Assembly (NCBI GenBank): GCA_005222975.1
Contig: NJBI01000034.1
Coordinates: forward strand, 1-38,318
Length of the DNA: 38,318 bases
DNA from: Promethearchaeota archaeon Loki_b31
Lineage (GTDB): Archaea > Asgardarchaeota > Lokiarchaeia > Sigyniarchaeales > SOKP01
Reading direction: 5' to 3'
A program made the position numbers and the translations under genes. The notes beneath the pieces are model-generated. The model did no database searches, was not told where the DNA came from, and saw only the letters and a program-made list of their open reading frames with translations. Below, piece after piece: positions 33,936-37,447 of the stretch; within the stretch, counting starts at the first letter, position 1, and every line of letters starts with the position of its first letter.

Positions 33936-34134
33936 AAAAAAACCTAACTTTTTTATCTAACCTTATAATTCTATCTGCTTTAATAACAATAATCTTAATT
34001 CTTAAATATTTCTTACTTTTATTTTCAACTATCGATTTAATCGCAAATAAAATTCCTCCTTTAATTAACTAAAAAATTTATTTACTTTTTCGCATTTTAA
34101 ATACTAAAATAACTACAATATTTGTTATTTTAAT

Positions 34135-34219
34135 GCGGGAATTGCCAAGCCTGGTCTACGGCGCTGGACTTAGAATCCAGTCTCAGAGGAGTTCGAGGGT
34201 TCAAATCCCTCTTCCCGCA
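34135..34219 (+). tRNA. tRNA-Leu(TAG), intronless
   Basis: GCGGGAA/TTCCCGC+A acceptor, anticodon arm CTGGA-CTTAGAA-TCCAG, long variable arm, GAGGG-TTCAAAT-CCCTC. Confidence 0.97.
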
Positions 34220-34297
34220 TTTGTTGTATTATTCTTTAGATAATTTTTATATTTATAAATGACTCTCTTGGTAAAATAAAAAAAGAAATATGGGTAA

Positions 34298-36544
34298 TTA
34301 CTTCTTAAGTTTCCTTTTGACAAGGATTAAAGTTACAGCGAGAGTTACTCCGATTAGAGCGATTAAGTTATATCCAGGGATTCTAGGAGGGATTGGTGGT
34401 TCACTCGATATTTGTTTGATCACCTGCACTTGAGCATTTCCCATCCCTGCGGTACTATTCACATAGAATATGATGGTCACGATGCCATCCGTAAGTTTAT
34501 CCCATTCGTTTTGATCGATAGTTCCCGTAAGACCGCCCGCGGTGATGTTCGTTGCCCCACCATCAAGCGTATACCAAATAGTATCATAAAGCCCCGTAAT
34601 TGAGATATCATACTCAGGAGCTGATGTTCCGAAAATGTCACTGTCGGAAGGTGAACTAATGGTAATCTCTGGAGGAGCAGTGTTTACCGAGAAATATCTT
34701 AGATTCGATTCGTACATCGTTCCTAGTGTATCATTTCCAAACACTTGAATCGAGTATACTCCATCTGAAGGCATTGGAACGGTTGTATTTCCTAAAATTG
34801 TTCTATTATTTGCGCCATTTAATGAATATCCTTTCCAATCTAAATTAGTTGTATTAGCATAACTCAATAGTAATCCCTCGTTCAAATTATCCCCGATATT
34901 GTAGTCTGGATCCCATGAATAGCCCACAGCATCAACATAACATGAACCAATGTTAGCCCAGTCTGCATTTATATTCATGGTTCCAATGTTACTTACAGCA
35001 GTTGTAAAATTACCATCGTCCACTCGTAAAACTCCATCAATGTACCAGTCATAGGTATCTGTAACAGCATCGAAAATCATTTTATGATGATACCACTGGT
35101 TAGCGACATAGGATTGAACGATATTATCTTGCATGTCTAAATAATCACCATCTTGCATTTTAAGCTTGCCAACACCAGTTCCTAAAGTTCCTTCATAAAA
35201 TAAATAATCAATCATATTAGATCCTGATGCAGAAGTACTCCACCACCATTCAATCGTACCAGATTGTTGCGGTGAAGTAAAATGATTACGTGCTTCAGCA
35301 TTGCCAGCCGTATTTGCATCATAGATGCGTAGAACTTTATTATGCCCCTGGAAATTGTTGACAATATCCACATAACAATTACTCTGAATACTGTTTGTAG
35401 AGTCGACATATGCAATATCTGTTCTTGAAGTCCCATCCATTTCATTTTCAAATCCATATGTCGCGGGATAATAGCCACTCATCGGTTCCGTGTACGTTTT
35501 ATTTTCAGGAGTTACAATATTAAGGTAGGGATTTGTATCCACTGTAAAGTATCTTAGATTTGATTCGTACATTGTGCCCATCGAATCGTTTCCGAACATA
35601 TGAATCGAGTGGAGTCCATCATCAAGCACCGGGATGGTAGTATTTCCCATAATAGTCTTATTAGTTTGCCCATCTAAGGAATATCCTTTCCAATCCAAAT
35701 TGGTTGTGTTTTCATAGCTAAATAAAATTCCCTCATTCAAATTATCTCCAACATTATAATTTGAATCCCAAGAGTACCCAACAGCATCCGTATACATATG
35801 AAAATTATCATATCGCCAATTTTGATGAATAATAATATGTGAAACATTGGAGTGTGATGAGATCATCTGAAAATCGCCAAATTGAACACCATTTACGAAA
35901 AATCTCCATTTATACTGAGCTAAACCATAGTGATTGCCAGTCCCACATTCAAATTGAATCCTTAGGTGATACCATTGATTGTTATTTGCGGTATAGGAAA
36001 CTGGATACCACTCCGTACTATTCATGAATTGAAATGTATTATCCATCATCCGAACTCCTGCGATTGCGTATTGATTAAAAGTGCCACTTTTCAGATGCCA
36101 TGCACTTTCTTGACTAACATCTGTAGTTCTTGCCCAAAATTCGATGGTTCCATATTCTTGAACGGACTTAAAATATTGATTGATGTTATTATTATCTCCA
36201 TAAGTATTTCCTTTATCCATATGAAGCACTTTCTTATGGCCGTCCAATTCGGTAATTATCTCATTAAACATAATTGGATCACCTTTTACTTCCTCCCATT
36301 CTTCTGGTATTGTGCCATCTTCATCATTTTCAAATCCATATGTTGCAGGGTAGTAACCGCTCATTGGCTCGGTATATGTTTTATTTTCAGGAGTGACGAT
36401 GGTTATTTCATCAGCGCTCGATTTTGGAGTCTCAAGCTTATATTGAGGTGTAAAACTTTGATTTAGCGTCCCAGCTACCGTAAGCGAAAGAATTAGGATA
36501 AGAAGGCTGATATTAATATTAGCATGTGACTTTTTTATTTTCAT
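34298..36544 (-). CDS. secreted/surface protein with two tandem ~294-aa beta-rich (LamG/ConA-like plus Ig-like) units and a Loki-CTERM-like sorting tail
   Basis: N-terminal signal/TM segment; PENKTYTEPMSGYYPATYGFEN repeated 882 nt apart; GTIE.W and NQWYH motifs; C-terminal IPGYNL-TM-KRKLKK. Confidence 0.88.
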   Translation of the reverse strand: MKIKKSHANINISLLILILSLTVAGTLNQSFTPQYKLETPKSSADEITIVTPENKTYTEPMSGYYPATYGFENDEDGTIPEEWEEVKGDPIMFNEIITELDGHKKVLHMDKGNTYGDNNNINQYFKSVQEYGTIEFWARTTDVSQESAWHLKSGTFNQYAIAGVRMMDNTFQFMNSTEWYPVSYTANNNQWYHLRIQFECGTGNHYGLAQYKWRFFVNGVQFGDFQMISSHSNVSHIIIHQNWRYDNFHMYTDAVGYSWDSNYNVGDNLNEGILFSYENTTNLDWKGYSLDGQTNKTIMGNTTIPVLDDGLHSIHMFGNDSMGTMYESNLRYFTVDTNPYLNIVTPENKTYTEPMSGYYPATYGFENEMDGTSRTDIAYVDSTNSIQSNCYVDIVNNFQGHNKVLRIYDANTAGNAEARNHFTSPQQSGTIEWWWSTSASGSNMIDYLFYEGTLGTGVGKLKMQDGDYLDMQDNIVQSYVANQWYHHKMIFDAVTDTYDWYIDGVLRVDDGNFTTAVSNIGTMNINADWANIGSCYVDAVGYSWDPDYNIGDNLNEGLLLSYANTTNLDWKGYSLNGANNRTILGNTTVPMPSDGVYSIQVFGNDTLGTMYESNLRYFSVNTAPPEITISSPSDSDIFGTSAPEYDISITGLYDTIWYTLDGGATNITAGGLTGTIDQNEWDKLTDGIVTIIFYVNSTAGMGNAQVQVIKQISSEPPIPPRIPGYNLIALIGVTLAVTLILVKRKLKK

Positions 36545-36915
36545 TTTAGTTCACGCTTCAAAATTTTTGTCTTAAATGAATTAAAGTATATCTAGATAAG
36601 GCTATATTTATACTTGACTCTCCTAATAAAACCCCTCGTTGTTGTTGAAAAACTAAATAAGGAGCTAAGAAGGTAGAAAGGGGATTCCAAAGATAGATTA
36701 AGAGATTAATATTATCGAAAATTAACTTCAGCGAAAATTCAAAATGCACAAATTAATATTAATATCCAAAATTTTTAGCAATATACAATCCCCCTCCTTT
36801 TCGCAATTTATATTATAAAAAAATTTAAAATCAAGCGTTAATTAGAAAAATATATTTAGAATCGTTTTTGTTCAATTTTAAGAATTAGTTTGATATAAAC
36901 GAAAATAAAAAGTAG

Positions 36916-37047
36916 GCCTTCGTAGTGTAGTACGGCCAAGCTTTCCTTAAAGGAAAGGGCTTCGCATGCTAGGCTTTCACCCTGGTGACAATACGGACCA
37001 AATCGGATCGCATCATTAGCCGGGTTCGAATCCCGGCGAAGGCACCA
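36916..37047 (+). tRNA. tRNA-Glu(TTC) with two introns (21/22: 36940-36963, 24 nt; 48/49: 36990-37019, 30 nt); CCA encoded
   Basis: GCCTTCG/CGAAGGC-ACCA, CTAGG-CTTTCAC-CCTGG, CCGGG-TTCGAAT-CCCGG; both inserts fold as bulge-helix-bulge motifs. Confidence 0.92.
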
Positions 37048-37088
37048 TCAGAAATTGGTGGAAAGCATTGGAAATCAACCAAATCTGT

Positions 37089-37249
37089 GCCTCCGTAGCT
37101 CAGCTAGCAAGTACAGAGCACTGTTTCGGTGTGCTTGGCTAAGTAGAACAATGTAAAATTGTATCAAAAGCACTCGGCTAAACGGTGATTTATCACTGTT
37201 CCGAAAGTTAACCGAGCGGTCCCATGTTCGATCCATGGCGGGGGCGCCA
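37089..37249 (+). tRNA. tRNA-Asn(GTT) with three introns (18/19: 37108-37142; 22/23: 37147-37168; 33/34: 37180-37206); CCA encoded
   Basis: Predicted spliced product GCCTCCG TA GCTC AGCTAGGTA GAGC A CTCGG CTGTTAA CCGAG CGGTC CCATG TTCGATC CATGG CGGGGGC G CCA (77 nt). Confidence 0.9.
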
Positions 37250-37264
37250 AATCTCTCTCTTTAT

Positions 37265-37447
37265 TTACTTTCCTTTTAATTCTTTTATTTTGTGAAGTTC
37301 TTCAAGACCTAAATCGCTTATTAAGATGTGTCTATCGTTATGCTCACTTGAGACGATAATAAGTTCTTTATTAACAAGCTTTACGAGATTTTTTCTAACA
37401 TTTTGCGTAATTACTCCAACGCTCTCAGCTATATCTTTTGTTCTCAT
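37265..37447 (-). CDS. short winged-HTH protein or gene fragment
   Basis: TKDIAESVGVITQNVRKNLVKL...LI......R...ISDLG pattern; probably N-terminally truncated. Confidence 0.55.
   Translation of the reverse strand: MRTKDIAESVGVITQNVRKNLVKLVNKELIIVSSEHNDRHILISDLGLEELHKIKELKGK

Follow-up and report, generated by a model that had tools for sequence, protein, structure and literature searches.

The window analysed here, a stretch of 38,318 nucleotides covering contig NJBI01000034.1 of the Promethearchaeota archaeon Loki_b31 genome, very probably contains a functional tRNA-Asn(GUU) gene, apparently the only one in its genome, that is interrupted by three BHB introns (A, B and C), with A likely leaving the precursor before B. 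A three-intron tRNA-Asn(GTT) had been proposed at this place in a first-pass annotation, whose coordinates and motif strings all proved exact when the sequence was read again; the gene itself is borne out by a spliced 77-nt product that ARAGORN accepts and by the agreement of its orthologues. The anatomy of the sequence, the orthology, the covariation and the encoded enzymes are read directly, and it is from these that we infer the splicing, its order and the co-transcription with a neighbouring gene.

Joining positions 37089-37107, 37143-37146, 37169-37179 and 37207-37249 of the + strand yields a 77-nt tRNA-Asn(gtt) in ARAGORN, built from exons of 19, 4, 11 and 43 nt, the last 3 nt being a genomic CCA. 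Exon 1 (37089..37107; 19 nt) provides the 5' strand of the acceptor stem, U8-A9, the 5' strand of the D-stem and the D-loop up to G18; it is followed by intron A (37108..37142; 35 nt, at 18/19), by the 4-nt micro-exon GTAG (37143..37146), which supplies G19, U20, A21 and G22, and by intron B (37147..37168; 22 nt, at 22/23). Exon 3 (37169..37179; 11 nt) holds the 3' strand of the D-stem from A23, A26, the 5' strand of the anticodon stem, C32 and U33. Intron C (37180..37206; 27 nt, at 33/34) abuts the anticodon on its 5' side, and exon 4 (37207..37246; 40 nt without CCA) carries GTT, the 3' strand of the anticodon stem, the variable loop, the T-arm, the 3' strand of the acceptor stem and G73. 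The genomic CCA (37247..37249) is not conserved, the relatives L002 and L007 having other bases there. Beyond it lies a T-rich trailer (37250..37297, read by eye), the first part of which is kept in relatives and which likely serves as an archaeal transcription stop. According to ARAGORN, the spliced product forms a standard cloverleaf with a 9-nt D-loop containing G18-G19, a 5-nt variable loop, a TTCGATC T-loop and the discriminator G73. Its identity as tRNA-Asn(GUU) is given by GUU in a 7-nt loop, U33, a purine at position 37, the cloverleaf and orthology to annotated tRNA-Asn. Excision of the three introns at their bulges thus yields a canonical tRNA in ARAGORN, and intronless orthologues match it. 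The unspliced gene escapes both ARAGORN and the Rfam tRNA model, in keeping with the earlier expectation that standard scanners often miss such genes; the intronless tRNA-Leu 2.9 kb upstream is found by both.

The intron boundaries were assessed by scoring every pair of 5' and 3' cuts for a central helix of 4 bp, 3-nt bulges on both strands and a helix within the intron, with the cut placed after the second base of each bulge. Intron A has a complete (4/4) central helix, AGCT/GGCT (37102-37105 with 37137-37140), the bulges AGC (37106-37108) and AAG (37141-37143) and an intron helix of 7 bp (37109-37115 with 37130-37136). Similarly, intron C has a 4/4 central helix, TCGG/CCGA (37174-37177 with 37201-37204), the bulges CTA and AAG and an intron helix of 8 bp (37181-37188 with 37193-37200). 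Intron B has an intron helix of 5 bp (37148-37152 with 37158-37162) and a central helix that reads AAGT/ATCA (2/4) in the unspliced RNA and AGGT/ATCA (3/4, with one A-A mismatch) after removal of A, its pairs then being formed by 37107, 37143 and 37144 with 37165-37163. An outer exon helix is absent from all three introns, so that A and C are HBh' motifs, and B, whose central helix only moves from 2/4 to 3/4 in the register consistent with the product, is a relaxed member of the BHB class. Central helices, relaxed in B, are combined with inner helices of 7, 5 and 8 bp in A, B and C, respectively.

Introns C and A take first and second place among the 679 relaxed candidates scored in the unspliced gene, and dinucleotide shuffles (20,000 per intron) gave motifs at least as good in 0.015% of cases for A, 0.145% for B and 0.005% for C. 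In ViennaRNA, the central pairs of C have a probability above 0.9 in every context and the hairpin of B is stable in all contexts (0.9-1.0); the central helix of A reaches only 0.13-0.17, since the exon motif AGCU is present twice and its copies compete. The sites 18/19, 22/23 and 33/34 and the 4-nt micro-exon, as originally assigned, agree with both the motif scoring and the orthologues. Two other partitions were considered and rejected. A single large intron reaching from 18/19 to 22/23 and skipping the micro-exon has 2/4 central pairs (scored by hand) and leaves a product without G19-G22. An alternative register for A, with cuts two bases earlier on each side (A18), has 4/4 central pairs (by hand), three of which are G-U or U-G, together with only three inner pairs, and loses G18. 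A fusion of A, micro-exon and B into one insert was also returned by the spliced-alignment dynamic programming under a high intron penalty, and a lower penalty was used.

When many splice combinations are offered, ARAGORN accepts spurious products (a false 'tRNA-Tyr' and a false 'tRNA-Leu' among them), so that a clean cloverleaf alone is weak evidence and it is the intronless orthologues that carry weight. A search of 40 related genomes found the tRNA-Asn locus in 12 genomes of the same genus, and a pattern scan of GTDB species genomes added 76 further Asgard tRNA-Asn loci. In one member of the same genus (G003), the tRNA-Asn gene has no introns and is called by ARAGORN as it stands; of 74 positions, 4 differ from the spliced product, and two of these four make up a compensating pair in the anticodon stem. 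Likewise, the intronless gene L035 matches the spliced product throughout the D-arm, and two compensating stem pairs are all that separates the two; exon 1 of the window is identical to the 5' part of such intronless Asgard tRNA-Asn genes (L035). In orthologues that do not have intron B, the micro-exon GTAG is joined directly to the downstream AGCAC.

Across Asgard genomes, the number of introns in this tRNA-Asn gene ranges from 0 to at least 4. Intron C is present in 39 distinct Asgard tRNA-Asn genes and forms all four central pairs in each, with C-G, T-A (in this window and in L002) or T-G as the first pair; over the first six positions of its intron helix, 215 of 234 cells are paired, compared with 146.5 +/- 5 when the 3' partners are permuted. 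Introns of the A type show compensatory changes in the central helix in L004 and L056. Intron B is limited to this genome (G000), G008 and G017, with one compensatory pair change in its intron-helix hairpin in L002. At window position 37151, in the 5' arm of this hairpin, contigs of two metagenomes carry A>C, the same change as in the G008 orthologue, whose partner base also differs. The G008 gene (locus L002, same genus) shares introns A, B and C and the 4-nt exon with the window, from which it differs by a fourth intron in the T-loop and by the lack of an encoded CCA. In eight other loci (L017, L024, L031, L042, L048, L052, L053 and L089), 60-nt inserts lie at about 63/64 of tRNA-Asn, and their outer boundaries are poor motifs with 2-3/4 central pairs.

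The genome encodes two EndA paralogues of ~200 aa each. The first (C13; G000:C13:36068-36670) matches, along its entire length, the Aeropyrum pernix catalytic alpha subunit (3P1Z_B, E 3e-34), part of an (alpha-beta)2 enzyme, has the Tyr/His/Lys active site in place and carries a lysine aligned with K44 of the specific loop, a loop that confers a broad substrate range (PMC5829648). A need for an EndA of relaxed specificity had been anticipated for this gene, and the loop lysine of C13 fits that expectation. The second paralogue (G000:C79:4939-5544) retains the Tyr and the Lys and has an Asp where the catalytic His should be, for which reason it looks like a structural subunit; it is a candidate beta-like subunit of full alpha length. 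By sequence, what characterizes a broad-specificity (alpha-beta)2 system is found here, namely a catalytic alpha subunit with the loop lysine and a second, non-catalytic subunit, and the two proteins would presumably form a heterotetramer. These findings agree with the EndA of (alpha-beta)2 type, bearing the L1 loop, described for Asgard archaea (PMC5829648). One of the two paralogues may be foreign, contamination of the MAG being about 6%. RtcB is also encoded in the genome.

Taken as a pathway, a precursor of ~160 nt would be transcribed, possibly together with the tRNA-Glu located 41 nt upstream; a heteromeric (alpha-beta)2-type endonuclease with a broad-specificity loop would cut out the three BHB introns, and RtcB would join the exons. 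Introns A and C, being complete HBh' motifs by themselves, could be removed in any order. Completion of B's motif would have to wait until A is out and the 4-nt exon has been ligated to exon 1, and an A-first order would avoid the release of this exon as a free tetranucleotide.

The proposed order follows from the way in which the two D-arm introns are interlocked. Intron A sits between G18 and G19, inside the 5' strand of B's central helix (A17a, G18, G19, U20), and it splits this exon strand in all three B-bearing species. Its removal adds a G18:C pair to B, raising the central helix from 2/4 to 3/4 in G000 and G008 and from 3/4 to 4/4 in G017; the suggestion that B gains a G-C pair only after A is gone thus extends to three species. 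In ViennaRNA, the probability of B's central pairs moves from 0.00-0.02 to 0.20-0.22 once A is removed, a tenfold gain, and if B is removed first, the central helix of A is lost to a competing fold. Because A interrupts the exon side of B's central helix, the likeliest order appears to be A first and B second, an in silico prediction that we hold with somewhat better than even confidence. After removal of A, B's central helix is still predicted to be imperfect, with 3/4 pairs and a probability of ~0.2.

The rival account that fares best accepts the same gene and introns and dispenses with an obligatory order, so that a broad-specificity endonuclease would cut A, B and C independently. It is unlikely, yet there are points in its favour: (alpha-beta)2 enzymes with the specific loop cut relaxed motifs (PMC5829648), the hairpin of B is stable in every context (0.9-1.0), and register R2 of B has 3/4 central pairs already in the unspliced precursor. 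Additionally, at least seven other Asgard tRNA-Asn genes with a CCAT micro-exon have a downstream intron helix that is better in the unspliced RNA. In these genes (L020, L027, L028, L061, L071, L080 and L082, from other Asgard MAGs), the 4-nt exon CCAT is bordered by a T-loop intron on its upstream side and a 63/64 intron downstream, and the central helix of the downstream intron uses the last two bases of the upstream one, so that it falls from 3-4/4 to 1-3/4 if the upstream intron goes first, a dependency opposite to that of the window. Dependence on prior splicing is therefore not general. Against independent cutting in the window stand the register of B consistent with the product, which has only 2/4 central pairs before A is removed, and the predicted probability of those pairs (0.00-0.02); moreover, if both A and B were cut first and ligation followed, a 4-nt exon with just two base pairs to hold it would be freed. 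Excision of A before B thus remains the preferred reading.

A further alternative, overlooked in the first-pass annotation, concerns the cuts of B. In a second register, with each of the two cuts moved by one base (to after 37147 and after 37167), 20 nt would be taken out, leaving a tRNA of 79 nt whose D-arm holds two additional A. With A gone, all four central pairs (GGTA/TATC) form in this register, alongside 3-nt bulges and an intron helix of 4 bp, and ARAGORN still accepts its product. However, the 79-nt product loses the G22-C13 pair of the D-stem, and none of the compact orthologues looks like it, each having GGTAGAGCAC instead; in G017, it is the 22/23 register that gives the homologous intron a 4/4 central helix, and in folding U37162 lies within the intron hairpin of the 22-nt register (0.88). 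Given the compact orthologues and the helix of G017, the second register is rejected as quite improbable, and B is taken as the 22-nt intron at 22/23.

The genome, that of an uncultured sediment Asgard archaeon, is a MAG of 3.52 Mb with 31.5% G+C, 92% completeness and about 6% contamination. A blastn-short search with the mature sequence found no second tRNA-Asn-like sequence in this 92%-complete assembly, and a BHB-guided search of all G+C-rich islands, which is only partly sensitive, likewise found no second tRNA-Asn; with just part of the hidden tRNAs recovered, that census offers little protection against overlooking a second copy interrupted in a different way. A 16-nt identity to the T-arm and acceptor at G000:C58:40812-40827 lies inside a protein-coding frame and was set aside as a chance match. 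In the near-complete relatives G008 and G017, the intron-laden locus is the only tRNA-Asn found. A check for other tRNA-Asn genes, proposed at the outset, thus turned up none in the assembly, and by sequence the gene is apparently a single copy. The incompleteness of the assembly (92%) would leave room for a decaying pseudogene, with inserts that stay unspliced and a tRNA-Asn supplied by an unassembled locus. This is very improbable, as the exons are intact with their stem changes compensated, all three inserts have BHB-type boundaries, intron C covaries across 39 genes, and G008 and G017, in which no other copy was found, have retained the same architecture. An assembly artefact or strain chimaera, conceivable for a window taken from a metagenome bin, has a negligible chance, because 37016-37350 is spanned, with 0-2 differences in sequence, by contigs of three other, independent metagenome studies (subsurface, cold seep and sediment). 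The one candidate RNA run (X20) contributed no sequence over this part of the window.

The comparison of orthologues also bears on how the interlocked pair of introns arose. Intron A shares its core hairpin with the 22/23 intron that many Asgard lineages have (alignment A1). In this alignment, the orthologues form an unpolarised series that comprises genes with no intron, genes with a 22/23 intron, a gene in which both copies of GTAGAGCAC are intact (L010), and genes in which the first copy has decayed, the last state being that with B at 22/23 of the surviving GTAGAGCAC copy. In L010 (positions 1501-1564; same genus, genome G012), the D-arm segment GTAGAGCAC occurs twice, intact on either side of the intron core, and the two choices of exon lead to nearly the same tRNA (G18 or A18). 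We tentatively propose, while regarding it as somewhat short of an even chance, that intron A is the widespread Asgard 22/23 D-arm intron shifted to 18/19, the shift having occurred through duplication of GTAGAGCAC downstream and decay of the upstream copy, and that B then took the regenerated 22/23 site in the ancestor of the three species. If this is true, local exon duplication beside an existing intron would be a route to new intron positions in Asgard tRNA genes, the origin of which is left as a question in a recent preprint (bioRxiv 10.64898/2026.10.13.758758), and interlocked motifs around 4-nt exons (GTAG here, CCAT elsewhere) would impose lineage-specific splicing orders. The introns have no related copies elsewhere in the genome, where only short AT-rich chance matches were found; the best of these (C71, 17 nt) lies within coding sequence and was rejected.

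Heavily interrupted tRNA genes are already documented in Asgard archaea. In three Asgard genomes, 92-95% of the tRNA genes bear introns, often several and often at non-canonical sites (Valentin-Alvarado et al., 2024; PMC11291895), and up to five intervening sequences per gene, with D-arm introns that are often missed by tRNAscan-SE, have been reported (Goswami et al., 2026 preprint; bioRxiv 10.64898/2026.10.13.758758). The locus described here has the same properties, i.e., an Asgard host and several non-canonical BHB introns in one gene, D-arm introns included. The published cases centre on Atabeyarchaeia and Jordi/Freyarchaeia, whereas the genome of the window belongs to another Asgard genus, and neither of the two reports (PMC11291895; 10.64898/2026.10.13.758758) mentions 4-nt exons or splicing order. 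Multi-intron tRNA genes were initially described here as best known from Thermoproteales. Such genes do occur there (Sugahara 2007/2008; Fujishima 2010; reviewed in PMC4090602) and share with the present gene two or three BHB introns at non-canonical sites and an (alpha-beta)2 EndA with the specific loop; however, Thermoproteales are a different phylum from the Asgard host of the window, and Asgard cases are already in print. Moreover, in contrast with Thermoproteales, this genome gives no sign of related intron copies spread among its tRNA genes.

Order-dependent processing likewise has precedents. In 'nested' archaeal introns, the last motif forms only after the other introns are gone (PMC3728597), and ordered BHB processing of three-intron pre-tRNAs, with the weakest BHB processed last, was shown experimentally in the red alga Cyanidioschyzon merolae (Soma et al., 2013; PMC3728597). 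In C. merolae, each motif folds independently and the order follows motif stability, whereas in the window one intron physically interrupts a strand of its neighbour's central helix. As heavily interrupted Asgard tRNA genes and order-dependent BHB introns have both been published, the locus is a clean and fairly ordinary example that leaves the general picture for Asgard archaea unchanged, and its added value, which is modest, consists in the interlocked A/B pair and the series of intron shifts. Asparagine codons are very common in this genome of 31% G+C; if the gene is the sole tRNA-Asn, translation requires that three splicing events go right, including one across a 4-nt exon. It offers a compact natural test case for how a broad-specificity archaeal endonuclease deals with closely packed, interlocked motifs, and for shifts of intron position among close relatives, since 0, 3 and 4 introns occur in the same gene within one genus.

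Other tRNA genes of this host are interrupted in a similar way. ARAGORN and Rfam together detect only ~22 tRNAs in the 92%-complete genome, and several of the ARAGORN calls are implausible. A BHB-guided census of the whole genome recovered the tRNA-Asn gene and about ten other intron-bearing tRNAs, including Trp-CCA, Pro-GGG, Lys-TTT, Lys-CTT, Ser-GCT, Ser-TGA and Met; the census was partial, as it missed the known tRNA-Glu and tRNA-Leu-CAA. The host is therefore an Asgard archaeon with many multi-intron tRNA genes that escape ARAGORN and Rfam. Two further candidates with three predicted introns each were returned by the census, Arg-TCG on C52 and Leu-TAA on C18.

The nearest neighbour of tRNA-Asn, 41 nt upstream, is a tRNA-Glu(TTC) gene (36916-37047) with two non-canonical introns. 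The first (24 nt; 36940-36963) has a 4/4 central helix, GGCC/GGCT, and a 7-bp hairpin, the second (30 nt; 36990-37019) lies at the junction of variable loop and T-stem, and the spliced tRNA-Glu(TTC) is accepted by ARAGORN. A TATA-like TTTGATATAAA stands before tRNA-Glu at 36889-36899, with none as good before tRNA-Asn, for which reason both tRNAs may share one precursor with five introns. The spacer between the two genes (37043-37088) contains a AAAGCATTGGAA motif that is conserved in relatives, and a TGGTG in the spacer is able to pair with CACCA, the 3' end of tRNA-Glu; a processing signal is conceivable here, as is a weak internal promoter. Farther upstream, a gene for a surface protein of 748 aa with a signal peptide, repeats and a C-terminal membrane anchor (34298-36544, - strand) lies between tRNA-Leu(TAG) (34134-34220) and tRNA-Glu. 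In the relatives L007 and L002, tRNA-Leu(TAG) is only ~330-420 bp upstream of tRNA-Asn, so that the surface protein gene looks like an insertion into a tRNA cluster. Additionally, an ORF of 53 codons runs antisense through the tRNA-Asn gene (37075-37236, - strand), where a protein mis-call is possible.
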